A stretch of DNA of 64,000 nucleotides from Gammaproteobacteria bacterium HGW-Gammaproteobacteria-4 (GCA_002839995.1 PGZC01000006.1:5804-69803), one strand, 5' to 3'; counted from the first letter of the stretch, positions 4,182 through 52,524 are shown. The notes: generated by a model not told the origin, from the sequence alone. A program made the numbers and translations.

Positions 4182-4727
4182 TCAGCGCAGCCGGTTGAAG
4201 CCGCGCTCGGTGACCACGGCATCCAGTGGTACATCCCAGGTTTGCGCGGCGATAGCATCGACTTGCTGAAAGGCATAGCCGACACCGATCAGCAGCGGCG
4301 TTGACTGACCATGCAGGCGGAATGCGAAGCTGCGATCGTACCAGCCGCCGCCCATGCCCAGCCGGTTGCCATGCAAATCGAAAGCGATCAGCGGCAGCAG
4401 CACCACGTCCAGTTGGTTCGGCTCCAGACAATCGGCGAGCGCGATGTCGGGTTCGGGAATGCCATAACGGTTGGGCAGCAACTCCACCGATGCCGACCAC
4501 GGAGCGAAGCGCAGCAGACCTTCGGGCGCGAGGCGGGGCAGGAGATAGCACGCCGGTGCGCGAATGCGCGTGGCGACGGCGTTCAGCGGCAATTCGCCGC
4601 CGACCGCCCAGTAGCCGGCGATCTGGCGCGCGCCATCCAACACCCCGCTGTCGAACAGGCGTGTGGCGACGGCCTGCGCGCTGCGTACCCGTTCGGTCGC
4701 CGAAAGGGCGGCGCGGCGCGTCTTCAT
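4182..4727 (-). CDS. ygfA: 5-formyltetrahydrofolate cyclo-ligase
   Basis: MKTRRAALSATERVRSAQAV...LLPLIAFDLHGNRLGMGGGWYDRSF (MTHFS signature). ATG at 4727 is preferred because the ORF start at 4778 would overlap the predicted 6S RNA 3' end. Confidence 0.85.
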   Translation of the reverse strand: MKTRRAALSATERVRSAQAVATRLFDSGVLDGARQIAGYWAVGGELPLNAVATRIRAPACYLLPRLAPEGLLRFAPWSASVELLPNRYGIPEPDIALADCLEPNQLDVVLLPLIAFDLHGNRLGMGGGWYDRSFAFRLHGQSTPLLIGVGYAFQQVDAIAAQTWDVPLDAVVTERGFNRLR

Positions 4728-4757
4728 TGCGGCTCTCAGGGATTGCTGCGGGTGCAC

Positions 4758-4953
4758 TGAGAAAACATCCTCCGCCATGCCGGTGCGTGCGAACGACCTT
4801 GATCCAGAGGATCAGGTGGGGACGCGTCCAGACCATCAGGCTTTCCGCAACGGGGCGGACATGCACACAGGGCTGGGGTGACGCCCCCGGGGTCGCTTGT
4901 TAAGGGTCAAGGCAAATGTTAGCGCACGCTGCCAAACACGGCAGAGGATGCAT
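4758..4953 (-). ncRNA. ssrS: 6S RNA (SsrS), approximate ends
   Basis: Sits in the conserved zapA-ssrS-ygfA position. The minus-strand 3' portion CACCUGAUCCUCUGGAUCAAGGUCGUUCGCACGCACCGGCAUGGCGGAGGAUG resembles the E. coli 6S 3' end (…CACCUUGAACCAAGGGUUCAAGG…GCGGCGGCAUCUCGGAG). The 5' CAUCCUCUGCC…GCGUGCG pairs with the 3' CGCACGC…GGCGGAGGAUG to form the closing stem. A TATACT -10 box lies at 4963-4958. Confidence 0.65.
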
Positions 4954-19102: not shown

Positions 19103-19172
19103 GTCGCCCACAGGGTGGGCTCCTACAAACAAGCGTCAACGCGTCCTTGTAGGAGCCCACCCTGTGGGCGAC
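19103..19172. repeat. REP-like hairpin
   Basis: GTCGCCCACAGGGTGGGCTCCTACAA ... TTGTAGGAGCCCACCCTGTGGGCGAC forms a near-perfect inverted repeat. The same arms recur near 30130-30205 and 52375-52445. Confidence 0.85.
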
Positions 19173-19331
19173 CGAGCGCAGCGAAGGCGTAGGCCGCGCA
19201 GCGGCCGCTGCTGCGAAGCAGCCGACCGAGCGCAGCGAAGGCGTAGGCCGCGCAGCGGCCGCTGTTGCGAAGCAGCCGACCGAGCGCAGCGAAGGCGTAG
19301 GCCGCGCAGCGGCCGCTGCTGCGAAGCGACC
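19170..19331. repeat. 54-bp tandem repeat, 3 copies
   Basis: Unit GACCGAGCGCAGCGAAGGCGTAGGCCGCGCAGCGGCCGCTGCTGCGAAGCAGCC at 19170, 19224 and 19278 (1-3 mismatches). Related in reverse orientation to sequence at about 52270-52330. Confidence 0.9.
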
Positions 19332-19514
19332 GACCGGTATGAGGCATCGGGCTAGTCGTGGGCCGGTGTCGTGTCGCATAATCGGATTCCGCATCCGACT
19401 GGCCGCGAGACCCGCCTTGAACATCCCCCGCGTTACCACCGTCCGGCAGATCACTGTGCCGATTGCGGGCGGGCGAGCGCATGATCGGGTGTACGCGTCG
19501 ATCGGGCCGAATCG

Positions 19515-21539
19515 ATGACCGAGGTGGCGGCTATGGGCGCGTGGCAGCCACTGGATTGGTTGCTGCTGCTGATCGTGCTGTGGCTGCTGCTCGGGGTGGC
19601 GGGTCTGCTCGCCCTGCGCCGCTTCGACTTCGTGGCGCGCGTGCTGTTCCCCCTCGGTGGGCTGGTCGCACTCGCGGTTGCGCTGGTCGCGGCGAGCGCG
19701 ATCACCGCGGCGCCGCAATCGGTGGTGCTGGCGATCGGCTTGCCGAGTCTGCCGTTTCACTTCCGGCTCGATGCGCTGGCGGCATTCTTCCTGATGGTGA
19801 TCGGCGCTACCACGGCCGGCGTGTCGGTGTTCGCCGCCGGCTATTTCCGGCAGGGCGAAGGCACGCCGCCGGGATTGCTGTGCCTGGAATACCACCTGTT
19901 CGTGGCCAGCATGGCACTGGTGGTGCTGGCCGACGACGCCTACGCGTTCATGGTGATGTGGGAAACCATGGCGCTGTCGTCGTTCTTTCTGGTCACCGCC
20001 AACCACCGCATTCCGGAAATCCGCCGTGCCGGCTACCTGTACCTGTTGATTGCGCACGTCGGTGCGATCGGGATCCTGTTGTGTTTCGGAGTGCTGCAGG
20101 CCAACACCGGCGATTACACGTTCGCCAACATGCGGGCGCAGGAACTGGCGTCGATCCCGGCCTCGCTGGCGTTGCTGCTGGCACTGTTCGGATTCGGCGC
20201 CAAGGCCGGTATCGTGCCGCTGCACGTGTGGTTGCCCGAAGCGCATCCGGCGGCGCCATCGCCGGTATCGGCGCTGATGAGCGCGGTGATGCTCAAGACC
20301 GCGGTATACGGTTTCCTGCGCGTGTCGCTGGACTTGCTGCACGCGCCGATCTGGTGGTGGGGCGTGCTGTTGTTGGCGGTGGGCATGGTGACAGCGCTGT
20401 TTGGCGTGGTATTCGCGGCGGTGCAAACCGACATGAAGCGCCTGCTCGCCTATTCGTCGATCGAGAACATCGGCCTCCTGTTCACCGGCATCGGCCTCAC
20501 CTTGCTGTTTTCCGCCTATGACATGCAGCCGATGGCGGCGCTGGCGCTGACCGCCGTGCTTTATCACGTGGCCAGCCACGCGCTGTTCAAAAGCCTGTTG
20601 TTCGTCGGCACCGGCTCGGTGCTGCATGCAACGTCCGAACGCAGCCTGGGCAAGCTCGGCGGCCTGATCCGGTTCATGCCGTGGGTCGGTTGGCTGACCC
20701 TGCTGGCGGTGCTGGCCAGCGCCGGATTGCCGCCGTTTGGCGGCTTCGTGTCGGAATGGCTGTTGCTGCAGGGCTTCGTGTTCGCACCGGGACTGCCCGG
20801 CGCCTTCCTGAGCATGTTGGTGCCGGCGCTGGCGGCGCTGGTGGCGCTGGTCGCAGCGTTGTCGGGCTACACCATGGTCAAGTTCTTCGGCGTGATTTTT
20901 CTGGGCCAACCGCGCGAGGAAAAGCTGCACCAAGCCACCGACGCCGGCATCTGGGAACGCGCCGGCATGATCTGGCTGGCGCTGGGCTGCATCGGCCTTG
21001 GCTTGTTGCCCAGTCAGTTCATCGCGCTGATCGATCCGGTGACGACGCAACTGGTAGCCGCCGGTATCGGCGAGTCGGTGGCGGAGCGTGGCTGGTTGCT
21101 GGTGCCGGTGGCGATCGAGCGCGCGAGCTACGGCCCGGTGATCTTCCTGCTCGGCGTCGCCGCCTGCTTCGCGCTGGCATTCGTGCTGGTGCGCCTGTTC
21201 TACCACGGCCGGGTGCGCCGCGCGCCGCCGTGGGATTGCGGGTTTGCGGCACAGACCGCGCGCATGCAGGACACCGCCGAGGGCTTTGGCCAGCCGATCC
21301 GCCACATCTTCGGCACCGCCTTTCGCATGAGCCGCGTGCTGCCGTCGCCGTTCGACCGCCAGCCGCAGTACGAAGTCACCGTGTCCGATCACGTCTGGCA
21401 TGGCCTGTACCTGCCGGTGGCACGCATCACCGCGCGCATCGCGAAACTGGTTGGCCGCTTGCAGCAGGGGCGGATCGCGATCTATCTGTTGTACAGCTTC
21501 GTCACCCTGATTCTCACTTTGATTCTGGTGCACCGATGA
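19515..21539 (+). CDS. HyfB/HycC-like antiporter-type membrane subunit (NuoL/M/N family)
   Basis: 674 aa, polytopic, with typical NuoL-like motifs (WETMALSSFFLV, AKAGIVPLHVWLPEAHPAAPSPVSALMSAVMLK). Confidence 0.9.
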   Translation: MTEVAAMGAWQPLDWLLLLIVLWLLLGVAGLLALRRFDFVARVLFPLGGLVALAVALVAASAITAAPQSVVLAIGLPSLPFHFRLDALAAFFLMVIGATTAGVSVFAAGYFRQGEGTPPGLLCLEYHLFVASMALVVLADDAYAFMVMWETMALSSFFLVTANHRIPEIRRAGYLYLLIAHVGAIGILLCFGVLQANTGDYTFANMRAQELASIPASLALLLALFGFGAKAGIVPLHVWLPEAHPAAPSPVSALMSAVMLKTAVYGFLRVSLDLLHAPIWWWGVLLLAVGMVTALFGVVFAAVQTDMKRLLAYSSIENIGLLFTGIGLTLLFSAYDMQPMAALALTAVLYHVASHALFKSLLFVGTGSVLHATSERSLGKLGGLIRFMPWVGWLTLLAVLASAGLPPFGGFVSEWLLLQGFVFAPGLPGAFLSMLVPALAALVALVAALSGYTMVKFFGVIFLGQPREEKLHQATDAGIWERAGMIWLALGCIGLGLLPSQFIALIDPVTTQLVAAGIGESVAERGWLLVPVAIERASYGPVIFLLGVAACFALAFVLVRLFYHGRVRRAPPWDCGFAAQTARMQDTAEGFGQPIRHIFGTAFRMSRVLPSPFDRQPQYEVTVSDHVWHGLYLPVARITARIAKLVGRLQQGRIAIYLLYSFVTLILTLILVHR

Positions 21540-22483
21540 GCGTGCTCGCGTTGACCTCGCAAGTTCTGGAGATCGTGCTGGCACTGCTGTTGGCGCCGCT
21601 GCTGACCGGCTGGATCAATCAATGCCGCGCCTGGCTGCAAAACCGCTCGGCCCCGGGCCTGTTGCAGCCGTTCCGGATGCTGCACAAGCTGCTCAACAAG
21701 GATTCCGTGCTCGCCGAACATGCCTCGCCGCTGTTCCGGGCGGCACCCTACGTGGTGTTCGGCTGCATGGTGCTGGCTACCGCCATCATCCCGACCGTAT
21801 CCACCAACCTGCCGTTGGCGCCGGCCGCCGATGCGATCGCGCTGGTCGGGCTGTTCGCGCTGGCGCGCGTGTTCATTGCGCTGGCGGCGATGGATATCGG
21901 CACCGCATTCGGCAGCCTGGGCGCGCGGCGCGAGATGCTGGTCGGATTTCTGGCCGAGCCGGCGCTGTTGATCGTGCTGTTTACAACGGCCTTGATCGCA
22001 GGTTCCACCTCGCTGACCAGCATCGTGCATACGCTGGCCGCAAGTTCGTTGGTGATTTCGCCGAGTCTGGTGTTCGCCGGGGTTGCGTTCACCATGGTGT
22101 CGCTGGCCGAAAATGCGCGGGTGCCGGTGGACAACCCGGCGACCCATCTCGAGCTGACCATGATCCACGAGGCGTTGATCCTGGAGTATTCCGGCCGCCA
22201 TCTGGCGCTGATCGAGTGGGCCGCCAGCCTGAAATTGTTCGCCTATTCGTGCATTGGTCTGGCGCTGTTCTTCCCGTGGGGTATCGGCACCGGCGGTTCG
22301 CCGGCGTCGCTGCTGCTGGCGCTGCCGATCCTGGTCGCCAAGCTGGCGGTCGGTGGTGCATTGATGGCGTTTCTGGAGATGGTCAGCGCCAAGATGCGCA
22401 TCTTCCGGGTACCGGAGTTTCTCGGCACCGCATTCATGATTGCGGTGCTGGCGATGCTCGTGCACATGCTGCTGGGAGCCTGA
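21536..22483 (+). CDS. HyfC/HycD-like membrane subunit (NuoH family)
   Basis: 315 aa. The ATG overlaps the upstream stop (ATGA). NuoH-like AENARVPVDNPATHLELTMIHEALILEYSG. Confidence 0.88.
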   Translation: MSVLALTSQVLEIVLALLLAPLLTGWINQCRAWLQNRSAPGLLQPFRMLHKLLNKDSVLAEHASPLFRAAPYVVFGCMVLATAIIPTVSTNLPLAPAADAIALVGLFALARVFIALAAMDIGTAFGSLGARREMLVGFLAEPALLIVLFTTALIAGSTSLTSIVHTLAASSLVISPSLVFAGVAFTMVSLAENARVPVDNPATHLELTMIHEALILEYSGRHLALIEWAASLKLFAYSCIGLALFFPWGIGTGGSPASLLLALPILVAKLAVGGALMAFLEMVSAKMRIFRVPEFLGTAFMIAVLAMLVHMLLGA

Positions 22484-22484
22484 C

Positions 22485-23144
22485 ATGAGCGGGCTCTCCG
22501 GCCAGTTCATCAACCTGTTCGCGGCGCTGCTGCTGTTGCTGGCGTTTGCGATGATTTCGCAGCGGCGGATCGTGTCGCTGATTACCCTGTTCACCCTGCA
22601 AGGGGCGACCCTGGTGGCGGCGACGGCACTGGTGGGTTACGTCACCCAGCAGCCGCATCTGTATCTGTCGGCAGCGCTCACCTTCGCGCTCAAGGTGGTG
22701 CTGATCCCCTGGCTGCTGCATCGGGTGATCGATCGCCTGAACGTGCGCTGGGACGTGGAGACCCTGATCAACATCCCGACCACCATGCTGGTCGGCATCG
22801 GTCTGGTGATGTTGTCGTTCTATCTCGCGTCGCCGATTTCGCAGCTGTCGACGACGATCATGCGCGGTACCCTGGGTATCGCGCTGGCGTGCGTGCTGCT
22901 GTCGTTCCTGATGATGATCACCCGTTCCAAGGCGGTACCGCAGGTGATCGGTTTTCTGGCGATGGAGAACGGCCTGTTCTTTGCAGCGACCTCGGCCACC
23001 TATGGCATGCCGATGGTGGTCGAACTGGGCATCGCGCTGGATGTGCTGGTTGGCATCCTGATCCTTGGCGTGTTCATGTTCCAGATTCGCGAGCAGTTCG
23101 ACAGCCTCGATATCCGCCACCTCGAATCGTTGAAGGAAGACTGA
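22485..23144 (+). CDS. HyfE-like small membrane subunit (NuoK-related)
   Basis: 219 aa, multi-TM. MENGLFFAA motif typical of HyfE. Confidence 0.8.
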   Translation: MSGLSGQFINLFAALLLLLAFAMISQRRIVSLITLFTLQGATLVAATALVGYVTQQPHLYLSAALTFALKVVLIPWLLHRVIDRLNVRWDVETLINIPTTMLVGIGLVMLSFYLASPISQLSTTIMRGTLGIALACVLLSFLMMITRSKAVPQVIGFLAMENGLFFAATSATYGMPMVVELGIALDVLVGILILGVFMFQIREQFDSLDIRHLESLKED

Positions 23145-23146
23145 GC

Positions 23147-24601
23147 ATGTCGGCGCTTTATTTCGTGCTCGGTGTTCCGCTGTTGGGCAGCGCTGTGCTG
23201 GCATGGTGCGGGCATCGTGGTTTCGCCCGCGATGTCAATGTCGGCTTCAGCCTCGCAACGTTCGTCGCCGCGTGCGCAATGACGGCGGCGGTGATTTCCG
23301 GCGGCCCGCTGTTTGTCTGGCAACACGAGTTCTACATCGACCCGCTGAATGTCTTTCTGGTGACGCTGACCGCGTTTGTCGGCCTGACCACCGCCATCTT
23401 TTCGCGGCCGTACATGCGGGTGGAAGAACAGCGCGGCAAGATGACGCCGCCGCGCCTGCGCCTGTATCACAGCATGTATCAACTGTTCAGTTTCACGATG
23501 CTGCTGGCGTTGACCACCAACAACATGGGCATCCTGTGGGTGGCGATGGAAGCGGCCACGCTGACCACGGTGATGCTGGTCAGTGTCTATCGCACCGCGG
23601 CCAGCCTGGAGGCGGCGTGGAAATACTTCATCCTGTGCGGGGTCGGTATCGCCCAGGCGCTGTTCGGCACGGTGCTGTTGTTCATGGCGGCGGAAAAGGT
23701 GATCGGCGCCGAGGGCGGGGCATTGCTGTGGACGCACCTGGATGCGGTGAAGACGCAACTGGATCCCGACATCATCACCCTGGCGTTTGCGTTCCTGTTC
23801 ATCGGCTATGGCACCAAGGTCGGCCTGGTGCCGCTGCACAACTGGTTGCCCGATGCCCACGCCGAAGGCCCGACCCCGGTTTCCGCGGTGTTGTCGGGCT
23901 TGCTGCTCAATGTCGCCCTGTATGCGATCCTGCGCTTCAAGGTGCTTACCGATGGCGCGTTGGCGAATCAGCTTGCCGGCCATTTGATGATGGGCTTCGG
24001 CCTGACCTCGGTGGTGGTGGCGGCGTTTTTCCTGTGGGGCCGGCGCGACGTGAAGCGCATGTTCGCGTACTCGTCGATCGAGCACATGGGCCTGATCACC
24101 TTCGCATTCGGCATGGGCGGGCCGATCGCCACCTATGCCGGCCTGCTGCACATGACCGTGCACTCGCTGATCAAGTCGGCGATCTTCTTCGCAGTCGGTC
24201 ACGCCACCCAGCAGGCCGGCACCCAGCTCATGGCCGAGATCCGCGGCTTGATGAAGGTCAGCCCGACCGTCGGTTGGGGCCTGATGCTGGGCACCTTGGC
24301 GATACTCGGCATGCCGCCGTTTGGCGTGTTCGCGAGCGAGTTCCTGATCCTGACCACGGCGATGCGCGAGCATGCCTGGGCGACGCCGTTTTTGTTGCTG
24401 GCGCTCGGCGTTGCGTTCGCCGCGATCTTTGCGCGGGTGCAGCCGATGGTCTTTGGCGACACCACGCTGCAACCGTTGCCGCATCCGCCCGCGCTGTTGC
24501 CGGTGTTCGTGCACCTGGGCCTGGGCCTGATGCTGGGCCTGTATATCCCGCCCTACCTGGACGAGTGGTATCGCCAGGCGGCGCGGATGATCGGAGGCTG
24601 A
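23147..24601 (+). CDS. HyfF-like antiporter-type membrane subunit (NuoN/M family)
   Basis: 484 aa. GTKVGLVPLHNWLPDAHAEGPTPVSAVLSGLLLN motif. Starts 2 nt after the hyfE-like stop. Confidence 0.9.
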   Translation: MSALYFVLGVPLLGSAVLAWCGHRGFARDVNVGFSLATFVAACAMTAAVISGGPLFVWQHEFYIDPLNVFLVTLTAFVGLTTAIFSRPYMRVEEQRGKMTPPRLRLYHSMYQLFSFTMLLALTTNNMGILWVAMEAATLTTVMLVSVYRTAASLEAAWKYFILCGVGIAQALFGTVLLFMAAEKVIGAEGGALLWTHLDAVKTQLDPDIITLAFAFLFIGYGTKVGLVPLHNWLPDAHAEGPTPVSAVLSGLLLNVALYAILRFKVLTDGALANQLAGHLMMGFGLTSVVVAAFFLWGRRDVKRMFAYSSIEHMGLITFAFGMGGPIATYAGLLHMTVHSLIKSAIFFAVGHATQQAGTQLMAEIRGLMKVSPTVGWGLMLGTLAILGMPPFGVFASEFLILTTAMREHAWATPFLLLALGVAFAAIFARVQPMVFGDTTLQPLPHPPALLPVFVHLGLGLMLGLYIPPYLDEWYRQAARMIGG

Positions 24602-24605
24602 TGCC

Positions 24606-26162
24606 ATGCCGATAGCGCCACAGGGTTTGAATCTGCGCCGGCTCGACGCGCCGCTGCCGATGTTTCGCGGCGCGATCGATTCCGCGCAATGGGCGCAAGC
24701 GGCGCGCGATATCGCGCAGGCGGGCGGCCGCTTGCTGGCGTTGTGGGGCAGCGATCGCCGCGACGATGGCGTAATGGTTGTATGCGCGGCGTACGCGGTC
24801 GAGCGCGGCCTGCTGTGGCTGGAATTGCCGCTGCCCATGCCAGCGTCCGGCTATCCCGATCTCGCCACCTGCTTTCCCTGTGCCGAGCGGATGCAGCGCG
24901 CATTGGCCGACATGCTCGGCGTGCGTGCGCAAAATCCGGAAGACGACCGGCCGTGGCTGGATCACGGGTTGTGGCCGCACGGCTTCAAGCCGTTGGCGCA
25001 CGGTGCCGGGGATGTGCCCGCTGCCGCGACGTTCACCCCCGCCCCCTATCCGTTTGTTCGCGTGGCCGGCGATGGCGTGCACGAGATTGCGGTGGGGCCG
25101 GTACATGCCGGCATCATCGAGCCCGGGCATTTCCGCTTCTCGGTGGTTGGCGAAAAAGTGCTGCGGCTGGAACAGCGGCTCGGCTATGTCCACAAGGGCA
25201 TCGAGCGGCGCTTCACCGAACTGGCGCCGCTCGACGGCTACCGGCTCGCCGGGCGGGTCAGCGGCGATTCGACCGTGGCCTACGCCTGGGCTTACGGCAT
25301 GGCGCTGGAATCGGCAGCCGCTGCCACCATCCCTGCACGTGCCGCCTGGTTGCGCGCGCTGCTGCTGGAACGCGAGCGCGTCGCCAATCACCTCGGCGAT
25401 CTGGGCGCGTTGGGGAACGATGCCGGGCTGGCGGTCGGGTTGGCGCAGTTCTCGCGCCTGCGCGAGGATTGGCAGCGCCTGTCGCGCACGCTGTTTGGCC
25501 ACCGCCTGATGATGGATTGCGTGGTGCCGGGTGGCGTCGCGGTCGATCTCGATGTCCAAGGCGTGCGCCTGATCGCCGCGCAATGCGATGCCATCGAAGC
25601 CGAGGTGCAGGCAATGCACCGCCTGTACGACGAGCATGCCGGCCTGCAGGATCGTTTCATCGGCACCGGCCGGGTGACGCCAGCGCTTGCGGCGCAACTG
25701 GGCCTGAGCGGGCTGGCCGGACGCGCCAGCGGCCAGGCGGTGGATCTGCGCAGCCAATTCCCGTTTGCCCCCTACGATGCGCTGGATGTGCGCATTGCCA
25801 CCCATCGCAATGGCGATGTTGCGGCGCGGGTGAATCTGCGCTTTGAAGAAGTGCTGGAGTCGCTGCAGCTGATCCGCCGCATCGCGCGCGAACTGCCGGC
25901 CGGCGCGATTCGCAGCACGATCGAACTGCCGCAGCGGCCGGCATTCGGCGCCGGCTGGGTCGAGGGCTGGCGTGGCGAGATCCTGGTGGCGCTGGAATTG
26001 GTGCCGCACGAGGGTGCCGTGCGCATTCGCCGCTGCCATTGCCACGACCCGTCATGGCAGAACTGGCCGGTGCTCGAACACGCGATGATCGGCAACATCG
26101 TTCCCGACTTTCCGTTGATCAACAAGTCCTTCAACCTCAGTTATTCAGGACATGACTTGTAA
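24606..26162 (+). CDS. HycE/HyfG-like large subunit (NuoC-NuoD fusion type) lacking the Ni-Fe cysteine ligands
   Basis: 518 aa. GPVHAGIIEPGHFRFSVVGEKVLRLEQRLGYVHKGIER aligns with HycE/NuoD. The RxCGxC position reads RVSGDS, and the C-terminal DPCxxC position reads NLSYSG (…INKSFNLSYSGHDL*). Confidence 0.9.
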   Translation: MPIAPQGLNLRRLDAPLPMFRGAIDSAQWAQAARDIAQAGGRLLALWGSDRRDDGVMVVCAAYAVERGLLWLELPLPMPASGYPDLATCFPCAERMQRALADMLGVRAQNPEDDRPWLDHGLWPHGFKPLAHGAGDVPAAATFTPAPYPFVRVAGDGVHEIAVGPVHAGIIEPGHFRFSVVGEKVLRLEQRLGYVHKGIERRFTELAPLDGYRLAGRVSGDSTVAYAWAYGMALESAAAATIPARAAWLRALLLERERVANHLGDLGALGNDAGLAVGLAQFSRLREDWQRLSRTLFGHRLMMDCVVPGGVAVDLDVQGVRLIAAQCDAIEAEVQAMHRLYDEHAGLQDRFIGTGRVTPALAAQLGLSGLAGRASGQAVDLRSQFPFAPYDALDVRIATHRNGDVAARVNLRFEEVLESLQLIRRIARELPAGAIRSTIELPQRPAFGAGWVEGWRGEILVALELVPHEGAVRIRRCHCHDPSWQNWPVLEHAMIGNIVPDFPLINKSFNLSYSGHDL

Positions 26163-26695
26163 TGTGGAAGATCATCAAACGCATCGCCCATGCCGGCATC
26201 GCCACTGAAGCGATCCCGCCGCCCGTGGCCGAGCCTGGCGACGATGTCGCGCACATCCAGCAGCGGCTGCTCGACATCCTCGGCAAGGCATTGACCATCC
26301 GCATGGTGGACGCCGGTTCGTGCAACGGCTGCGAACTGGAAATCCACGCGCTCGGCAATCCGTACTACAACATCGAGGGCCTGGGCATCAAGTTCGTGGC
26401 CAGCCCGCGCCATGCCGACCTGTTGCTGGTGACCGGGCCGGTGTCGCGGCACATGGCGCAGGCGCTGCAACGCACCTGGGAAGCGATGCCCGATCCCAAG
26501 CTGGTGGTGGCGGTGGGCGACTGCGGCTGTAGCGGCGGCGTGTTTGGCGAGAACTACGCCAGTTGCGGGCGCGTCGCCAACGTCATCCCGGTGCATTGCA
26601 CCATCCCCGGCTGCCCGCCGGCGCCGATCGACGTCCTGCGCGGCATCCTCAGTGCGGTGAGCGCGCATGCTTCGCCGCGAGCGGTCAGCTCATGA
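26162..26695 (+). CDS. HycG/HyfI-like small subunit (NuoB family, [4Fe-4S] ligands retained)
   Basis: 177 aa. SCNGCELE ... GDCGCSGG ... GCPP cysteine pattern. The ATG overlaps the large-subunit stop (TAATG). Confidence 0.9.
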   Translation: MWKIIKRIAHAGIATEAIPPPVAEPGDDVAHIQQRLLDILGKALTIRMVDAGSCNGCELEIHALGNPYYNIEGLGIKFVASPRHADLLLVTGPVSRHMAQALQRTWEAMPDPKLVVAVGDCGCSGGVFGENYASCGRVANVIPVHCTIPGCPPAPIDVLRGILSAVSAHASPRAVSS

Positions 26696-27180
26696 GCAGC
26701 GTGCCCCCGGCGCAGGCAGTGTTGCAGGCCAGGCTCGATGCCATGCCGCCGGTGCGCGCGATGGCGGTGCAGGTGGCTTCGGCAACGCCGGAGCGGGTGT
26801 GCCTGCACGCGCCGCTGGCGGCCAACGTCAACGACAAGGGCTGTGCCTTTGGCGGCAGCATCGCCGGGCTGATGACCCTGGCCGGCTGGGGGTTGCTGGT
26901 GGCGCGTGTCGATGGCGCGGCGCTGCCGGCGGTGGAGGTCTATGTCGCCGACAGCACGATTCGTTACCTGGCACCGCTGTATCAGGCGATCGAAGCGCAG
27001 GCCTGGCTGCACGACGCATCGCACTGGGAGCCGACGCTGCAACGTCTGCGCGAACGCGGCCGCGCCAGCCTGAACGTGCAGGCGCAGGTGCTCGGGCCCG
27101 ATGGCAAGCCGGTGGCGAGCATGGATGCGCGCTTCGCCCTGGTCACGGCAATGGCTGGCGACACAGCACGACTTGGGTAA
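26692..27180 (+). CDS. hotdog-fold protein, YiiD C-terminal-like putative thioesterase
   Basis: 162 aa. ...HAPLAANVNDKGCAFGGSIAGLMTLAGWGLLV... resembles the YiiD_C/PaaI-like hotdog family. The ATG overlaps the small-subunit stop (ATGA). Confidence 0.6.
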   Translation: MSSVPPAQAVLQARLDAMPPVRAMAVQVASATPERVCLHAPLAANVNDKGCAFGGSIAGLMTLAGWGLLVARVDGAALPAVEVYVADSTIRYLAPLYQAIEAQAWLHDASHWEPTLQRLRERGRASLNVQAQVLGPDGKPVASMDARFALVTAMAGDTARLG

Positions 27181-29974: not shown

Positions 29975-30290
29975 ATCTGGCGTCATTGCGAGCGTAGCGA
30001 AGCAATCCAGCGTCTTGATTCTCCGAGTATTTCTGGATTGCCACGTCGCCCGGGAAAACCGCGCCTTTGCTTCACTCGGTCGGTTGCTTCGCAACAGCGC
30101 TCCCTACGCTCGCTAGACCTTCGCTGCGCCCGGTCGCCCACAGGGTGGGCTCAGGTAAGCGCAATCGTGATTTTGTAGGAGCCCACGCTGTGGGCGACAT
30201 GCCGAAGCGACGAACGACACGCGTACCCGCACCAAATCGGCTTTCCCTCACGATGATCGGCAAGGCTGACTGGCTGCCAAGGCCCCAAAA
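29975..30290. repeat. composite REP/BIME-like repeat cluster
   Basis: Contains GTCATTGCGAGCGTAGCGAAGCAATCCAG...CTGGATTGCC (related to the element at 52610-52772). It also contains CGGTTGCTTCGCAACA...TCGCCCACAGGGTGGGCTC...GTAGGAGCCCACGCTGTGGGCGAC...CGCACCAAATCGGCTTTCCCTCACGATGATCGGCAAG, which is colinear with 52270-52515. Confidence 0.8.
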
Positions 30291-34788: not shown

Positions 34789-37359
34789 ATGAGCCCTGAA
34801 ACTCCTGACGAAGTTGAGATTCTGCGAACAATGCGGGTCGACAACGAGCCGCAGTACATCGCGCATGTCCGACCTGACAGTACATGCCGTCAGTCGCTTG
34901 AGTCGCATCTACGCGGCGTTGCTCGCCTCGCCGCAGAATTCGCCGCGAAATTTGGGCTGTCCACGCACGGCGAATTGATTGGGCTTTTGCATGATCTGGG
35001 TAAATACAGCGCGGCGTTCCAAGCCTACATCAAGTCCGCAGCCAACTTGTTGGATCAGGATACCGACGAAGAATTTGTCGATGCGAAGGGTCTGAAAGGC
35101 AAGATCGATCATTCGACCAGTGGCGCGCAGTTCATCTGGCAAAACCTGGCAGATAAAGACGCCTTGGCGCAAATTGCCGGGCAAGTTCTCGCGTTATGCG
35201 TCGCATCCCATCATTCCGGCCTGATCGACTGTCTGACATCCACACCCGGAAAGCCCGCGGAAGACGGTTTCACAAAACGCATGGGCAAGCCGGATTCGAA
35301 GACGAATCTGCAAGAAGTGCTTGCCAAAGCCGATCCGGCACTGTTGGCCGAGGCGGGCCGCCTCATCGCGCAACCACAGGTCGCATCGGCATTCCAGGTC
35401 TGGCTTTCGAAGCTCCTCAACAAGGCGCCCGGCGATACACCGAACGCCAAGGTGGCGAGCCCTGTCATACAACAACAAATCGGTCTGCTCGTGCGCGCGT
35501 TGTTCAGCTGCCTGATCGACGCCGATCGCATCGACACCGCCGATTTCGAACACCCCGGTCGTGCCCGACGTCGGCTTCGCGGGAATTACACGGCTTGGGA
35601 GACGTTGATCGCGCGGCTCGAATCGCGTCTGGCGGAGTTCGAGCCGACCCAGCCCATCGACGCGCTGCGTCGGGACATTTCACGTCATTGCCTCGAGGCC
35701 GCCACGCGCGATACCGGCATCTACACGCTGACCGTGCCGACCGGTGGCGGCAAGACGCTGGCGAGCCTGCGCTTCGCGCTTCACCATGCGCACAAACACA
35801 GCCTCGACCGCGTCATTTACGTCATTCCGTTCACATCCATCATCGACCAGAACGCCGAAGTCGTCCGCAAGATTCTCGAACCGGAAGGTGTCGAAGCGGG
35901 GAGCGTGGTGCTGGAACATCACTCCAACCTAACGCCAGAAGATCAGACCTGGCGCTCCAAAATCCTCTCCGAAAACTGGGACGCGCCGGTTGTCTACACC
36001 ACGATGGTTCAGTTGCTGGAAACGTTGTTCGGCGCGGGCACGCGCGGCGCGCGGCGGATGCACCAGCTTGCCAATGCCGTGCTGGTTTTCGACGAAATCC
36101 AAAGCCTGCCTGTGCGTTGCGTGCATCTTTTCAACAACGCCATGAATTTCCTTGCCGACCACTGCCACAGCACGGTCGTGCTTTGCACCGCCACCCAGCC
36201 GTTGTTGGATCGGGTTGATGCGGTCAAAGGCGCGATCCGCATACCGCCCGGCAACGAGCTCATCCGCGACGTTCGGCAACTTTTCGATGATCTGAAACGA
36301 GTCGATGTGCTGAACCTTCGCAAGCCAGGCGGCTGGCCGCAGGAAGACATCGCGGCGCTGGCGCAACAGCAAATCGAAGCCGTCGGCAGTTGCCTCGTGA
36401 TCGTGAACACGAAAAAAGCCGCGCAGGCGCTTTATCGCTTGAGCCGCAATCATCCCGATACCGCCGTTTTCCACCTCAGTACCAGTATGTGCCCGGCGCA
36501 CCGCAAGGCCCGTCTTGAGGTCATCCGCAGCCGTCTGGAAGCAAATCCGCCGTTACCGACCCTGTGCTTCAGCACGCAGCTGATCGAAGCTGGGGTTGAT
36601 GTCGATTTTGCGTCCGTGATCCGTTACGCCGCCGGTCTCGATTCCATCGCGCAAGCGGCCGGCCGATGCAACCGCAACGGTCGGCTCGACCGTGGCAATG
36701 TCTACATCGTCAACCCGCGCGACGAAGACGAAAACTTGGGAAAATTGCCCGACATTCTGATCGGGCGCGAAAAGGCCATCCGCGTGCTCGACGACTACGA
36801 CGCGGACCCTGAAAAGTACGGCTGGAACCGCATCGGCCCGGAAGCGATGGCTTGGTACTACACCAACTACTTTTTCCAGCGCGCCAATGAAATGAGCTAC
36901 CCCGTGTCCGGTAACGAGATCGGTCGCGACGATACCTTGCTCAATCTTCTATCGGGCAACCCGCATGCCGTCAGCGATTACGCGCGCACTCACAACAGAC
37001 AGCCTCCGGCGCGCTTTCTGCGACAATCCTTCATGGCTGCCGCACGCGCTTTCAAGGCCATCGACGCCCCGACGCGCGGCGTGATCGTGCCGCACGGCGA
37101 AGCCGGCAAAGCGCTGATCGCCGACTTGTGCGCGGCTTACCTGCCCGACAAGGAATTCGAGCTGTTGCGCCGCGCCCAGCAATACAGCGTCAACGTCTTG
37201 CCACGCCAACTCGAAGCCCTTAGCAAGGCGAGTGTCGTGCGCGAAGTCCAGGACGGCACCGGCATCCTGTATCTGGTCGATTCCCGCTACTACAGCGAAG
37301 AATTCGGTCTTTCCGACACCCCCGAAGGCTTGATGGAGGTTCTCTGTGTCTCATCGTAA
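34789..37359 (+). CDS. cas3: CRISPR-associated helicase/nuclease Cas3 (HD + SF2 helicase), type I-C context
   Basis: HD motif (HLRGVARLA...[10 protein letters not shown]...HHSG...DADRID). Helicase motifs ([44 protein letters not shown]). Confidence 0.95.
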
Positions 37360-38059
37360 CAACATCGAATTCAAAGTCAGCGCGCGCTATGCGCTCTTCA
37401 CCGATCCGCTCACCCGAATCGGCGGCGAGAAGTGCTCGTACCACTTGCCAACCTACGAAGCCCTCAAGGGCATCGCCAAGTCGATCTACTGGAAGCCGAC
37501 CTTCATCTGGGTCATCGACGAAGTGCGGGTGATGAAGCCGATCCGAACCCAGACCAAGGGCACGAAGCCGATCGACTATGGCGGCGGCAATACGCTGGCC
37601 ATCTACACCTTCCTTGCGGATGTCGAATACCAGGTCCGCGCGCACTTCGAGTGGAACCAACATCAGCCCGGGCTGGCGGACGACCGTATCGACGGCAAGC
37701 ACTTCGCCATCGCCCGACGCATGCTGGAACTCGGTGGGCGACAGGACATTTTTCTTGGCACGCGCGATTGCCAGGGCTACGTCGAACCCTGCGAGTTCGG
37801 TTCGGCGGGGGGGCACTACGACGATATCGACCGCATGGACTACGGTCTGACTTTCCACGGCTTCGACTACCCCGACGAAACCGGCGAAGCGATTCTCACC
37901 GCTCGCTTCTGGCGGCCCGTCATGGAATTCGGCCGAGTGCGCTTCCCGAAGCCGGAAGCCTGCGACATCCGCAAGCCCATACGCCCCATGACCGCGAAGC
38001 AGTTCGGAAAGGGCAAGTTGCGTGGCGTCGAAGCCGAAGCCACCGAGCTGGGGGTGTGA
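37346..38059 (+). CDS. cas5: Cas5c/Cas5d (type I-C pre-crRNA endonuclease subunit)
   Basis: GTG start. [57 protein letters not shown] is typical of Cas5d. Overlaps the cas3 end by 14 nt. Confidence 0.92.
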
Positions 38060-38060
38060 G

Positions 38061-39968
38061 ATGAGCTGGATACAGAAGCTCTACGAGACCTACGAGCAAT
38101 GCAAGGGGCACGAACCGGAGGGTGCGGAGCGTCTACTCCCCGTCAGCCACACCTTTCAGCAAGCGCATGTGGAAGTCTCGCTCGATTCACTGGGCAACTT
38201 CAAATCTGCACGGACGCTGGGCAAGGAAGACACCGTCATCCCCGCGACCGAGAAATCGGCTGGCCGGACAGGTAAAGCGCCGCCGCCGCATCCCCTGTGC
38301 GACAAGGTGCAGTATTGCGCGGGGGACTACACAGAGATGGGGGGTGGCAAGCCTTCGTTCTTCAAAGACTACGAAACGCAGTTGGCGGCCTGGTGTGCGT
38401 CCGCTCATAGGCACCCCAAAGCGGAAGCGATTCTTGCCTATGTACGAAAAAACCGGGTCATCGCAGATTTGGTTACCGAAAGCGTCCTGCATCTCGGGCC
38501 TGACGGAAAACTGCTGAACAACTGGGGCCGCGATACCCCAGTGCCCGAGGTGTTCAAGGTTCTTACGTCTGATGCCAAGACCAAGTTACGTGATCAGGGG
38601 AATGTTTTTATCCGCTGGCGAGTTCATGAGCCAGACAATCCATGCTCGGCAGTCTGGGAAGACGAGGGCTTGCAAGCAGCCTGGGCGAAATACGATGCCA
38701 GCGCCAAGGCAACGCCTGGCATCTGCATGGTGACGGGTGAAGCCGGGGTCAACTTGGCGTTGAGCCATCCCAAGCGTATTCGCCACGCGGGCGACGGCGC
38801 AAAACTCATCAGTGCCAATGACGGTTCGGGCTTCACTTTCCGTGGCAGGTTTACCGACGACACCGGCCAGCAAGCTTGCGGCGTAGGCTACGAAGTCACG
38901 CAAAAAGCCCACAACGCGCTGCGCTGGCTGATCCAGCGTCAGGCCTACCGCAACGGCGATCAGGTCATCGTCTCGTGGGCTGTTGGCGGGGCTCCCATTC
39001 CCGATCCTTTCGGCAGCTCGCTCACGCTACTGCTTGCAGGCGGCGACGCGGCGGAAGCACCCACTGTCATCGTCGACACCGACGCAGGGCAAGCCTTCGC
39101 CAAACGCCTGAGTCTGGCGATGAGAGGGTATCGCGCACGACTCGGTCCGGCCGACGACATTGTCGTGATGGGGCTGGATTCCGCTACGCCCGGGCGAATG
39201 GCGATCACCTTTTACCGAGAGTTGACCGGTTCGGAATTTCTTGCGCGGATCGAACGCTGGCACATCGACTTCGCCTGGCATCAGAACTTCGGCAAGGACA
39301 AGCACTTCGTCGGCGCACCCGCGCCGCACGACATTGCCGAGGCTGCGTATGGGCGCCGCCTCGACGACAAGCTCAAGAAGGCTACAGTTGAGCGCTTGCT
39401 GCCGTGCATCATCGATGGTCAGGCGCTGCCGCGCGACCTCCTTGATTCGACCATCCGCCGCGCCTGCAATCGGGTCGGGCTGGAGCGCTGGGAGTGGGAA
39501 AAATTTCTGGGTATCGCCTGCGGTCTGTACCGAGGCGCTTTCAAAAACGAGGGGTACGAGATGACACTGGAGACAAACCGGCGTAGCCGGGACTACCTGT
39601 ATGGGCGTTTGCTGGCGGTCGCCGAGCACATTGAAAGTCGCGCCTTGTACGTAGCAGGCGAAAAGCGCGACACCACTTCCTCCAAGCTGATGCAGCGATT
39701 CGCTGACCGGCCTGCGAGCACATGGCGAATTATTGAGCCTGCTCTAACACCCTACATCTCCCGTTTGCGAGCAAAGCGCGCTGGATTCATGTTCGAGATG
39801 GACAAGTTGCTGGATCAAATTATCTCCTGCTTCATGGACGATGACTTTCTTGACGACAGCAAGCTTTCCGGCGAATTCCTGCTCGGCTACCACTGCCAGC
39901 GTCAGGCGCTGAACCCGCCAAAACCCGATGTTGCCACTGCGGTTGAAGAAGACACCTCCGCCGACTAA
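38061..39968 (+). CDS. cas8c: Cas8c/Csd1 large subunit
   Basis: MSWIQKLYETYEQC...VSHTFQQAHVEVSLD...VIPATEKSAGRTGKAPPPHPLCDKVQY: a Csd1-family N-terminus in the canonical position between cas5c and cas7c. Confidence 0.92.
   Translation: MSWIQKLYETYEQCKGHEPEGAERLLPVSHTFQQAHVEVSLDSLGNFKSARTLGKEDTVIPATEKSAGRTGKAPPPHPLCDKVQYCAGDYTEMGGGKPSFFKDYETQLAAWCASAHRHPKAEAILAYVRKNRVIADLVTESVLHLGPDGKLLNNWGRDTPVPEVFKVLTSDAKTKLRDQGNVFIRWRVHEPDNPCSAVWEDEGLQAAWAKYDASAKATPGICMVTGEAGVNLALSHPKRIRHAGDGAKLISANDGSGFTFRGRFTDDTGQQACGVGYEVTQKAHNALRWLIQRQAYRNGDQVIVSWAVGGAPIPDPFGSSLTLLLAGGDAAEAPTVIVDTDAGQAFAKRLSLAMRGYRARLGPADDIVVMGLDSATPGRMAITFYRELTGSEFLARIERWHIDFAWHQNFGKDKHFVGAPAPHDIAEAAYGRRLDDKLKKATVERLLPCIIDGQALPRDLLDSTIRRACNRVGLERWEWEKFLGIACGLYRGAFKNEGYEMTLETNRRSRDYLYGRLLAVAEHIESRALYVAGEKRDTTSSKLMQRFADRPASTWRIIEPALTPYISRLRAKRAGFMFEMDKLLDQIISCFMDDDFLDDSKLSGEFLLGYHCQRQALNPPKPDVATAVEEDTSAD
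39561..39968 (+). CDS. cas11: putative Cas11c small subunit from an internal in-frame start within cas8c
   Basis: In-frame ATG at 39561, preceded by GAGGGG (39549-39554, 6-nt spacer). It would give a 135-aa helical product (MTLETNRRSRDYLYGRLLAVAEHIE...). Internal translation of Cas11 from cas8c is established for type I-C systems. Confidence 0.5.
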   Translation: MTLETNRRSRDYLYGRLLAVAEHIESRALYVAGEKRDTTSSKLMQRFADRPASTWRIIEPALTPYISRLRAKRAGFMFEMDKLLDQIISCFMDDDFLDDSKLSGEFLLGYHCQRQALNPPKPDVATAVEEDTSAD

Positions 39969-52183: not shown

Positions 52184-52524
52184 GCGTAGGCATGGATCAA
52201 TACTGGATTAGCACCAGGAGCCTATCGGACTTGAGCCGTTGCGATGAAACCGGAGCCTTCGCTTCGCTCGATCGGTTGCTTCGCAACAACGCCTGCTGCG
52301 CAGGCTACGCCGTCGACTGCTTCGCGGTTACGCGGGGCTGCGCCCGACACTTCGCCGCTATCCGGCTCGCTCGGTCGCCCACAGGGTGGGCTCCTACAAA
52401 AAACGGTTGCGCTTACCAGTAGCAGCCCACCCCGTTGGCGACCTGTCGGAAAGACCATCAATGCGTGCATTCGCACCAAACCGGCTTTCCCTCGCTACGA
52501 TCGGTCAAGTTCGACAGGCTGCTA
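52184..52524. repeat. 341-bp REP/BIME-like cluster occupying a spacer position in the array
   Basis: Lies between repeat 121 and an intact repeat at 52525. Contains CGGTTGCTTCGCAACAACGCC..., TCGCCCACAGGGTGGGCTCCTACAAAA...GTAGCAGCCCACCCCGTTGGCGAC and CGCACCAAACCGGCTTTCCCTCGCTACGATCGGTCAAG, colinear with the cluster at 30060-30290. Confidence 0.8.

Follow-up and report, generated by a model that had tools for sequence, protein, structure and literature searches.

Previous studies described several relatives of the locus reported here. Ehr complexes, named for Geobacter (GSU0739-0745; Coppi 2005) and later generalised (Marreiros et al. 2013; both as cited in PMC6688271), contain NuoL-, NuoH-, HyfE-, and NuoM/N-like membrane subunits together with a small [4Fe-4S] subunit and a large subunit that lacks the Ni-Fe cysteines; no function is assigned to them in PMC7894505, PMC10284858, or PMC6349859. 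The hyfBCEFGI genes of Cupriavidus metallidurans and C. necator were described in 2010 (PMC2864759), and the literature also notes the cassette in Acidithiobacillus, Geobacter, Nitrospira, and Mycobacterium. The copy of Acidithiobacillus ferrooxidans is classed by HydDB as a non-hydrogenase, and its hyf proteins are not produced during growth on H2 (PMC7735108). The closest studied relative is the HyqBCEFGI 'endo-hydrogenase' of Azorhizobium caulinodans (Ng 2009; Sprecher 2012), also known from other alphaproteobacterial diazotrophs. The hyq genes show NifA-dependent induction in diazotrophic (N2-fixing, low-O2) culture (PMC2650096), and hyq-dependent H2 recycling and evolution were reported in vivo: deletion slows diazotrophic growth, and in a hupSL mutant about 80% of microaerobic H2 evolution depends on hyq, in a nifK background too (PMC2650096; PMC3357923). 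For HyqG, the authors of these studies themselves regarded a Ni-Fe site as 'uncertain, if not unlikely' (PMC2650096; PMC3357923). An initial annotation of the present locus missed Hyq; its statement that no physiological role had been demonstrated overlooks the Azorhizobium work (PMC2650096, PMC3357923), and its expectation that H2 assays would be negative is unsafe, since hyq-dependent H2 turnover has been reported in vivo. The cluster is thus not new, and its family is widespread and already described.

We analysed a 64-kb stretch of DNA, hereafter the window, in which a hyfBCEFGI-like cassette of six genes in one direction occupies positions 19515-26695. Families were assigned with Pfam, NCBIfam, and tblastn using E. 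coli proteins. The features of the region are as follows.

19103-19336, no strand: upstream cassette junction, a REP-like inverted pair followed by a tandem repeat (repeats read in the sequence)
19515-21539, + strand: hyfB-like gene, HyfB/NuoL-like antiporter-type membrane subunit (674 aa, PF00361)
21536-22483, + strand: hyfC/nuoH-like gene, HyfC/HycD/NuoH-like membrane subunit (315 aa, PF00146 NADHdh)
22485-23144, + strand: hyfE-like gene, small membrane subunit (219 aa, NCBIfam PRK11492)
23147-24601, + strand: hyfF-like gene, HyfF/NuoM/N-like antiporter-type membrane subunit (484 aa, PF00361)
24606-26162, + strand: large subunit, a NuoC-NuoD (HycE/HyfG-type) fusion (518 aa, PF00329 and PF00346)
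26162-26695, + strand: small subunit, NuoB/HycG/HyfI-like (177 aa, PF01058)
26692-27180, + strand: YiiD_C hotdog/thioesterase-domain gene (162 aa, PF09500 and TIGR02447)

The gene map confirmed the tight, co-directional arrangement that had been read from the sequence: hyfB and hyfC overlap by ATGA (21536), the large- and small-subunit genes overlap by TAATG (26162), and the spacers between hyfC and hyfE, hyfE and hyfF, and hyfF and the large-subunit gene measure 1, 2, and 4 nt, respectively. Two coordinates were corrected, as hyfF starts at 23147 and the hotdog gene at 26692, where an ATGA overlaps the hyfI stop. The order B-C-E-F-G-I is collinear in 54 of the 54 loci that hold all six genes. 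Homologues of NuoB, NuoD, NuoH, and the antiporter-like subunits are encoded together (PF01058, PF00346, PF00146, and PF00361 twice), as in Ehr. The locus is almost certainly a horizontally acquired six-gene cassette of the Ehr/Hyq type that encodes a minimal complex-I-like membrane complex.

The antiporter-like membrane subunits retain their transport residues. The HyfB-like protein matches NCBIfam PRK06521 'hydrogenase 4 subunit B' above cut-off (893 bits), shows 33% identity to E. coli HyfB across residues 67-670 (tblastn), and keeps the TM5 Glu (E150), TM7 Lys (K230), TM8 Lys (K261), and TM12 Glu (E414); the HyfF-like protein matches PRK06458.1-5 'hydrogenase 4 subunit F' above cut-off (896 bits), is 40% identical to E. 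coli HyfF (tblastn), and keeps E135, K224, and E398. Both thus have the Glu (TM5), Lys (TM7), and Glu/Lys (TM12, here Glu) that are conserved in Mrp-type antiporter subunits. The HyfC-like protein matches PF00146 NADHdh (E=5e-37) and is 35% identical to HycD, while the HyfE-like protein matches PRK11492 'hydrogenase 4 membrane subunit' below cut-off (E=1e-27) and is 23% identical to E. coli HyfE. Relative to the closest locus, L088, dN/dS is 0.064 for hyfB, 0.047 for hyfC, 0.026 for hyfE, 0.028 for hyfF, and 0.16 for the large subunit, so that the strongest constraint falls on the membrane subunits (0.03-0.06, up to 91% identity). The small subunit is 43% identical to E. coli HycG (tblastn) and retains C54, C57, C121, and C151 in CNGC...GDC...GCPP; these predicted [4Fe-4S] ligands, whose intactness had been noted earlier and was upheld by alignment, align with those of HycG, HyfI, and NuoB and are found in 75-78 of 78 family members.

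The large subunit, 31% identical to E. coli HycE (tblastn), has lost its metal site. Ligand columns were checked twice, by phmmer against PDB 7z0s_E (HycE, E=6e-52) and by MAFFT with E. coli HycE, HyfG, and NuoCD. In both, RVCGIC corresponds to RVSGDS (S219, S222) and DPCYSC to NLSYSG (S512, G515), and the protein ends in ...SGHDL without a C-terminal extension. The loss of all four Ni-Fe cysteines (S, S, S, G) claimed in the initial annotation therefore stands on these HycE/NuoD-type alignments. The ligands are replaced in 69 of 69 clade representatives, except that a few have a Cys at the first of the four positions, and the Cys-less state was seen in about 70 of the 90 top family representatives. 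The substituted residues form a conserved signature of their own, SGD[ST]...NLSYSG.DL, of which [SA]GD[STNEH] and NKSFNLSY[SA]G.DL are kept across phyla down to about 35% identity. D221 (65/69), D272 (60/69), and D481 (51/69) are typical of the Cys-less clade, and E172, H175, R456, and D517 also occur in Ni-Fe relatives. At the D272 position, E. coli NuoCD has the Asp equivalent to Asp139 of the Nqo4 quinone site; the two canonical complex I quinone ligands are gone, with G220 at the Tyr87 and I171 at the His38 equivalent.

These data bear on the label that pipelines give the cassette, a genuine Ni-Fe hydrogenase-4 or formate hydrogenlyase. The HyfB and HyfF equivalogs above cut-off and the hydrogenase names in public records speak for that label, but the large subunit reaches no NCBIfam hydrogenase cut-off (its NuoD matches are also below cut-off), and all four metal ligands are replaced throughout the clade representatives. 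Moreover, of all genes in the window, only these six were hit by the Hyc, Hyf, Hyp, and Nuo queries from E. coli: HycA, HycB, HycF, HycH, HycI, HypA-E, HyfA, HyfH, and HyfJ gave no match in the 64-kb window, nor did NuoA, E, F, G, I, J, and K (tblastn, E<=0.01). Pfam found no molybdopterin/formate-dehydrogenase domain in the seven scanned long ORFs (>=648 aa) of the window. The earlier reading that the window lacks hyp, HycI-protease, HycB/HycF/HyfA/HyfH, and formate dehydrogenase genes was thereby borne out, within those scanned ORFs for the last. As the complex cannot bind a Ni-Fe(CN)2CO centre, it is not a hydrogenase-4 or formate hydrogenlyase; this identity has a vanishingly small probability and is in effect ruled out by the ligand alignment.

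The comparison with E. coli hydrogenase-3 (HycB-G, FHL-1; PDB 7Z0S), the best match of solved structure (HycE, E=6e-52), and hydrogenase-4 (HyfA-J, FHL-2) shows homologous subunits at only 23-43% identity. The large subunits share the NuoC-NuoD fusion, the EPGHFR loop, and the Arg of the xRG motif, and the small subunits a CxxC-type motif; however, both hydrogenases have the four Ni-Fe cysteines and a C-terminal extension for a HycI-type protease, and HyfA, HyfD, HyfH, HyfJ, HycB, HycF, formate dehydrogenase, and the hyp genes are missing from the window. Complex I (NuoA-N) shares the NuoB, NuoC/D, and NuoH core and antiporter-like subunits with a Glu/Lys relay, whereas the window lacks NuoA, E, F, G, I, J, and K, has Gly and Ile in place of the quinone-binding Tyr and His, and carries CxxC instead of the tandem CC of NuoB. 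The Pyrococcus membrane-bound sulfane reductase (MBS/Mbx), a group-4 relative, lost H2 chemistry and kept a respiratory architecture; it retains two of the four cysteines, a three-Cys proximal cluster, and a NuoI-type two-cluster subunit (PMC8165549), whereas the window has none of the four cysteines, a four-Cys cluster, and no NuoI-type subunit. Likewise, no two-cluster ferredoxin-like subunit (HycF/HyfH/NuoI type) lies inside the cassette in 54 complete loci.

The family is broadly distributed: species-level genomes with a relative of the cassette number at least 592, and among clusters built at 50% identity, 6368 are matched at E<1e-3 and 965 still at E<1e-30. A rough NJ tree (no bootstrap) unites the Cys-less proteins, the window large subunit included, in a single clade whose sister comprises Cys-containing (CCCC) group-4 relatives; HycE/HyfG and NuoCD lie outside. 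This grouping agrees with the Ehr-type placement proposed earlier. Identity within the beta/gammaproteobacterial sub-branch that includes the window copy is 47-70%. Loss of catalytic ligands and accessory genes might suggest the remnant of a decaying hydrogenase operon, a set of pseudogenes, which had been named as a reading that could overturn the original interpretation. It has next to no likelihood: the six frames are intact here and, collinearly, in all 54 complete loci, the translationally coupled junctions are maintained, the replaced motifs are conserved across phyla, and dN/dS is 0.026-0.16 at unsaturated dS (0.41-0.67, against L088). The cassette genes are under strong purifying selection, and the selection analysis rules out a pseudogene set.

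The insertion site was also evident. Upstream, a 24-nt REP-like element forms an inverted pair (19103-19126 and 19149-19172), after which a 54-bp unit is repeated 3.1 times in tandem (19169-19336); further copies of the element occur at 30175 and 52374/52419, against a chance expectation of 0 matches. There is no ORF between hemD and hyfB, and no HTH or RHH gene adjoining the cassette was found. In Arenimonas oryziterrae, which lacks the cassette, the hotdog gene (yiiD) directly adjoins hemD. The cassette is inserted between hemD and yiiD, and the hotdog gene belongs to the backbone rather than to the core of the complex. Its protein, which had been proposed for modelling together with the six subunits, is not a subunit; linkage of the gene to the cassette is confined to L001 and L088, the two closest loci, both of Lysobacterales type.

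The resemblance to Hyq raises the alternative that the cassette encodes a Hyq-type 'endo-hydrogenase', which would be a six-subunit H2:ubiquinone oxidoreductase with an H2 site other than a Ni-Fe centre. The six subunits match in identical order, with identities of 39-59% between the window proteins and those of the rhizobial Hyq operon of R. johnstonii (L089). HyqG has likewise lost both CxxC motifs by the S-S-S-G replacement (SGDS...SYSGHDL), HyqI keeps the four cluster cysteines, and the window clade and Hyq fall in the same sub-branch of the Cys-less clade in the rough NJ tree without bootstrap. The A. caulinodans deletion phenotypes in growth and H2 evolution would also fit (PMC2650096; PMC3357923). 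However, this support is genetic and in vivo only, the phenotypes may be indirect, through reductant supply, and the authors' own doubts about HyqG were noted above. HyqG has invariant C258, C491, and C497 (A. caulinodans), whereas the window has G270, I505, and L511, and I and L occupy the two C-terminal positions in 77 of 81 clade members; since the window lacks all three cysteines and at least 77 of the 81 members lack the two C-terminal ones, a cysteine-based H2 chemistry is not transferable. In addition, Hyq operons begin with the HTH regulator hyqR and are NifA-controlled in Azorhizobium, whereas the window has neither hyqR nor a nif context, and the failure of A. ferrooxidans to make its hyf proteins on H2 (PMC7735108) also counts against this alternative, which we consider improbable.

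A second alternative is an Mrp-like cation/proton antiporter, redox-independent or redox-gated, in which the cap and cluster would be structural or sensory, with no net electron transfer. The intact transport residues, the high constraint on the membrane subunits (dN/dS 0.03-0.06), the lack of a NuoI/HycF-type electron-input subunit and of a conserved partner gene, and the absence of both Ni-Fe and quinone ligands point in this direction. Yet the four cluster cysteines are essentially invariant family-wide, and the pocket below the cluster is highly conserved, seemingly beyond structural need. Mrp antiporters (MrpA-G only) have no peripheral redox module, whereas the operon has NuoB- and NuoC/D-type subunits; to our knowledge, Mrp antiporters function without a NuoB or NuoD homologue, which also argues against an antiporter. 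We regard it as unlikely, with some residual weight.

Judged from sequence, the most likely function is that of a redox-coupled ion-translocating complex rather than a Ni-Fe hydrogenase. The initial annotation had likewise proposed an ion-translocating membrane module, which the Ehr-type placement and the retained antiporter residues support. As a whole, this explanation is the best that we can offer, held at close to an even chance. The membrane arm would comprise two antiporter-like subunits (HyfB and HyfF), HyfE, and the NuoH-like HyfC, and the small cytoplasmic cap the NuoC-NuoD fusion and the NuoB-type subunit, whose single [4Fe-4S] cluster would be the sole redox cofactor. We tentatively propose, at somewhat under an even chance, a working mode in which this cluster passes electrons between the quinone pool of the membrane and a soluble partner of low potential, in either direction, coupled to ion movement. 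The quinone may make contact at the interface of the large subunit, the small subunit, and HyfC, and the soluble partner may dock at the place normally held by the missing HycF/NuoI subunit. The former Ni-Fe cavity would be filled by a conserved polar/charged network (D221, D272, D481, R456, E172, and H175) that would hand a redox change to HyfC and from there to the Glu/Lys relay conserved in HyfB and HyfF, so coupling electron transfer to proton or cation movement. The structure model around the former Ni-Fe site is of too poor a quality to probe this network. In aerobes, the complex might work in the opposite direction and use proton-motive force to oxidise quinol, which, if true, would be of use to cells with an over-reduced quinone pool. 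The quinone and soluble partners, the direction in which electrons flow, and the identity of the ion are all inferred; among the loci compared, no conserved ferredoxin or flavodoxin gene was found linked to the cassette, and the soluble partner is therefore a guess. Two points count against the explanation: the canonical quinone ligands are absent (G220, I171), and genetic data, which for relatives come from Hyq alone, indicate H2 turnover and not a quinol:ferredoxin reaction (PMC3357923).

Published expression and regulation of relatives fit electron-acceptor limitation: besides the NifA-dependent induction of hyq, the Geobacter Ehr is highly abundant on formate (PMC7894505), and the M. tuberculosis relative is under the Rv0081 regulator (PMC6728331). 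The mislabelling that had been predicted is real, as shown by the above-cut-off equivalogs for 'hydrogenase 4 subunit B' and 'hydrogenase 4 subunit F'. In public records, the large subunit goes by names such as 'Ni,Fe-hydrogenase III large subunit', 'NADH-quinone oxidoreductase subunit C', and 'Formate hydrogenlyase subunit', and one Hyq-clade relative is named 'hydrogenase expression protein HypE'.

ORF listing and translation placed six genes at 19515-26695 of the + strand, in agreement with the initial annotation; we refer to this hyfBCEFGI set as the cassette:

19515-21539, + strand, hyfB-like gene
21536-22483, + strand, hyfC-like gene
22485-23144, + strand, hyfE-like gene
23147-24601, + strand, hyfF-like gene
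24606-26162, + strand, large subunit gene
26162-26695, + strand, small subunit gene

The junctions, in gene order, are ATGA, 1 nt, 2 nt, 4 nt, and TAATG, and the Pfam domains comprise Proton_antipo_M (twice), NADHdh, Complex1_30kDa with Complex1_49kDa, and Oxidored_q6. When the 518-aa large subunit was searched against the PDB with phmmer, its best relative of solved structure was E. coli HycE (7z0s_E, E=6e-52), with RVSGDS opposite RVCGIC and NLSYSG opposite DPCYSC; MAFFT alignment with E. coli HycE, HyfG, and NuoCD gave the same ligand columns (S219, S222, S512, and G515). Both methods thus bear out the earlier claim that all four Ni-Fe cysteines are replaced. The MAFFT alignment also showed that the large subunit ends in ...SGHDL, the 32-residue tail of HycE/HyfG being missing. 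The small subunit keeps its [4Fe-4S] ligands, as proposed, since C54, C57, C121, and C151 occupy the columns of the cluster ligands of HycG, HyfI, and NuoB. A tblastn search of the whole window with E. coli HycA-I, HypA-E, HyfA-J, and NuoA-N matched only the six cassette genes, so the reported lack of hyp, HycI, and ferredoxin-subunit genes in the window also stands; by Pfam, none of the seven window ORFs of at least 648 aa is a molybdopterin enzyme. In NCBIfam, HyfB and HyfF exceed the cut-offs of the 'hydrogenase 4 subunit B/F' equivalogs, and the large subunit reaches the cut-off of no model. Collectively, these results show that the complex is unable to hold a Ni-Fe centre, and the chance that it is a real hydrogenase-4, as the two equivalog names would have it, is vanishingly small. 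Apart from its cluster ligands, the small subunit has the additional cysteines C123 and C135. The former, within GDCGCS, is shared by 64 of 78 relatives and the latter by 54 of 78, and HycG, HyfI, NuoB, and the rhizobial HyqI lack both.

In the Cys-less clade, i.e., the large subunits without the four Ni-Fe cysteines, the former ligand motifs have the consensus forms R[VI][S>A,C]GD[S,T,E,N]... and NKSFNLSY[S/A]G.DL. The only positions that are at least 85% conserved in this clade yet rare in Ni-Fe relatives are D221, P482, S512, and G515, and the Cys-less representatives carry D221 in 65, D272 in 60, and D481 in 51 of 69 cases. E172, H175, H196, R456, S508, Y513, and D517 are common to true hydrogenases and the Cys-less clade. 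Judged from these alignments, the replaced site is a conserved signature and not drift, which the window sharpens to three aspartates that are typical of the clade and surround the position once occupied by the metal. Given the shared residues versus the clade-typical ones, the cavity has kept the hydrogenase scaffold, lost every thiolate, and gained carboxylates. D272 aligns with the NuoCD Asp that is the equivalent of Asp139 in the quinone site of Thermus Nqo4, and in the window large subunit G220 and I171 stand in the Tyr87 and His38 columns. The roles of these three Nqo4 residues are established from complex I structures. A 'CHCH' motif (C477-H480) was considered as a substitute metal site and rejected; it is invariant in close relatives and variable across the family, with C, P, L, A, or V at position 479 and sometimes V, L, or A at position 477. 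An AlphaFold2 model of the large subunit, built from a 14-sequence alignment (mean pLDDT 65), was dropped because its poorest stretches (pLDDT <50 at residues 132-198 and 484-518) coincide with the site of interest.

One four-cysteine cluster is left in the complex, and its transport relay is complete: each antiporter-like subunit retains the NuoL/M/N residues Glu (TM5), Lys (TM7), and Glu (TM12). A NuoI/HycF-type input subunit is absent. A non-redox or redox-gated antiporter is an unlikely alternative. We tentatively favour a reading in which the [4Fe-4S] cluster would shuttle electrons between the quinone pool and a putative soluble low-potential partner, while a new network of charged residues, occupying what was the metal cavity, would tie electron transfer to ion movement, perhaps in the reverse direction when acceptors are limiting.

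When one genome per species was scanned, at least 592 genomes carried a relative, and an exhaustive profile-free search returned 6368 protein clusters (50% identity) at E<1e-3 and 965 at E<1e-30. Among the matches listed, the hosts are mostly Burkholderiales, Gallionellaceae, Nitrosomonadales, Rhodocyclaceae, Nevskiales, Steroidobacterales, Lysobacterales, and Acidithiobacillus, with further matches in Actinomycetota, Acidobacteriota, and Nitrospirota MAGs. [quoted passage not shown] Among the 90 top representatives of full length, the cysteines are missing from approximately 70, and all four are present in 11. In a rough neighbor-joining tree, the Cys-less proteins, including the window large subunit, form one clade that is sister to the Cys-containing relatives, with HycE/HyfG and NuoCD outside; this supports the Ehr-type interpretation and indicates that the ligand loss is old and was followed by a large radiation. 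Beyond the window's own lineage, the best matches of the large subunit are betaproteobacterial (67-83% identity).

The order B-C-E-F-G-I is collinear in 54/54 loci with all six genes. Relative to the closest locus available (L088, a Xanthomonadaceae MAG), dN/dS in operon order is 0.064, 0.047, 0.026, 0.028, 0.161, and 0.086, at a dS of 0.41-0.67 that is therefore unsaturated; the strongest constraint falls on the membrane subunits. These results show that the operon is alive and under strong selection. Decay into a pseudogene cluster, raised as a counter-possibility when the genes were first annotated, is contradicted by both the dN/dS values and the collinearity, and is almost inconceivable.

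In Arenimonas oryziterrae, hemY-hemX-hemD on one strand are directly followed by yiiD_C, a gene for a 138-aa protein, a rhodanese gene, secB, and gpsA on the opposite strand, with no cassette between hemD and yiiD_C. The six genes lie exactly between hemD and yiiD_C both in the window and at L001 and L088, two related loci from MAGs. The large subunit and the YiiD_C protein of the window each match a protein of the MAG 'Gammaproteobacteria bacterium HGW-Gammaproteobacteria-4' at 100% identity. Because Arenimonas has the same backbone uninterrupted, the cassette was placed there by insertion; the window copy is horizontally inserted, and it adds a clean, selected example in a groundwater Lysobacterales-like genome. 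The hotdog (YiiD_C) gene now overlaps the hyfI stop. We considered this protein and the next lipoprotein as additional subunits and rejected both, as the linkage occurs only in L001 and L088 and the yiiD-138aa-rhodanese-secB-gpsA block abuts hemD in the cassette-free Arenimonas. The hotdog gene is a backbone neighbour, not a subunit, and the window shows it to be outside the system. Two kinds of repeat occur at the upstream junction of the cassette, and the first of them also lies elsewhere in the window:

19103-19172, 30175-30198, and 52374-52442, five copies of a REP-like 24-nt element, GTAGGAGCCCACCCTGTGGGCGAC
19169-19336, intergenic tandem repeat just upstream of hyfB (54 bp, 3.1 copies, 96% matches)

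Four of the five REP-like copies (0 matches expected by chance) form two inverted pairs, of which one lies between hemD and hyfB and one where the CRISPR array ends. A sigma-70 promoter scan of the locus gave no match. Elsewhere, a small RHH_9 (ribbon-helix-helix) regulator gene lies beside hyfB in 19/50 loci, directly upstream or divergent, in many Betaproteobacteria, and a spermidine-synthase-like gene lies near the cassette in 14/71 loci; the C. necator locus (L081) has the following:

4604-4879 and 12139-13606 of L081, RHH_9 / spermidine-synthase-like neighbours

HPr-like and DUF1275 genes are found near the Cupriavidus/Ralstonia copies. All four kinds of neighbour are absent from the window, and they were set aside as functional hints, as none points to a substrate.

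The initial annotation overstated the novelty of the cluster, which belongs to the known Ehr/Hyq kind. As cited in PMC6688271, the name Ehr was given for Geobacter (Coppi 2005) and the concept was generalised by Marreiros et al. 2013. The orthologous hyfBCEFGI of C. necator (H16_A2196-A2201) and C. metallidurans (Rmet_4666-4671), 67-69% identical to the window set, were described in 2010, with lithotrophic use judged unlikely (PMC2864759); a literature search for these locus tags matched only that genome paper. Both species are indicated as tractable hosts, and the window alone makes the question of function no more tractable than the Cupriavidus and Azorhizobium copies do. In A. ferrooxidans, the hyfBCEFGI catalytic subunit is a non-hydrogenase according to HydDB, and the proteins were undetected on H2 (PMC7735108); in Geobacter on formate, Ehr subunits are abundant (PMC7894505). 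Ehr also occurs in comammox Nitrospira, ammonia-oxidising archaea, and M. tuberculosis, and the literature assigns it no function.

Also missing from the earlier account was Azorhizobium caulinodans hyqRBCEFGI, for which H2 phenotypes are reported. Its authors see a six-subunit core version of complex I, and HyqG lacks both CxxC motifs, a Ni-Fe site being 'uncertain, if not unlikely'; hyq induction is NifA-dependent, hyq deletion slows diazotrophic growth, and in a hupSL mutant ~80% of microaerobic H2 evolution is hyq-dependent, also when nitrogenase is absent (PMC2650096, PMC3357923). We found a rhizobial Hyq orthologue on a Rhizobium johnstonii plasmid, whose six proteins share 46, 53, 39, 54, 49, and 59% identity with their window counterparts. 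Its HyqG (504 aa) has Cys 491 and 497, matching the published numbering, and its motif RTSGDS...CNKSFNCSYSGHDL resembles that of the window large subunit. The three "invariant" cysteines of the Hyq family are replaced in nearly all of the window's clade, and are G270, I505, and L511 in the window. Because these three cysteines are missing, the window complex is a sister subfamily of Hyq rather than an orthologue, and cysteine-dependent Hyq chemistry cannot be transferred to it. The window draws attention to the fact that the H2 phenotypes of Hyq and the loss of the metal site are at odds, and a Hyq-type H2:quinone oxidoreductase is improbable here. That the Hyq reports are right and apply family-wide, with the conserved SGD[ST]/NLSYSG pocket acting as a new kind of catalytic site below the four-cysteine [4Fe-4S] cluster, is highly improbable; if true, H2 or another small molecule would be converted in this pocket with no need for nickel, Hyp machinery, or thiolate ligands, and in aerobic bacteria the reaction would drive or be driven by ion translocation.

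Ehr/Hyq annotation is systematically wrong. As had been forecast, hydrogenase-4 and formate hydrogenlyase names are routine in databases; names of NADH dehydrogenase subunits are routine there too, and H2-metabolism predictions in metagenomics are inflated as a result. In Falsiroseomonas spp. (protein cluster P0136), Hyq-type large subunits are misnamed 'hydrogenase expression protein HypE'.

Related sets adjoin the cassette in other genomes. In L083 (Methylibium sp.; 1-2959 and 7210-7869), the cassette is directly preceded by another Cys-less set of greater divergence. This second set has an antiporter-like gene and a 496-aa large subunit containing IVGDSS...SYCGNDL, and its small subunit is a fusion with a 2x[4Fe-4S] ferredoxin domain; this locus also has a GST gene between hyfC and hyfE. 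L022 (Aquabacterium) carries an upstream set homologous to the second set of L083. In L036 (a groundwater betaproteobacterium), the region ~1.2-3 kb upstream of hyfB has a large-subunit gene with an intact RICGVC, predicted from this motif to belong to the genuine Ni-Fe proteins of group 4, and a ferredoxin-NuoB fusion alongside; this hints that a true complex may be encoded next to a Cys-less one. The window also contains a type I-C CRISPR-Cas locus and three genes unrelated to the cassette:

34789-37359, cas3, type I-C locus
38022-39968, csd1/cas8c, type I-C locus
43595-52183, CRISPR array, type I-C locus
5615-7945, - strand, PAS-GGDEF-EAL signalling protein
53214-56879, + strand, autotransporter with passenger repeats
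57087-59213, - strand, EF-G-family GTPase

The array is very long, with ~120 copies of the 37-nt repeat GTCGCCGGCTCTCATGGGAGCCGGCGCGGATTGAAAC at a period of ~71 nt.
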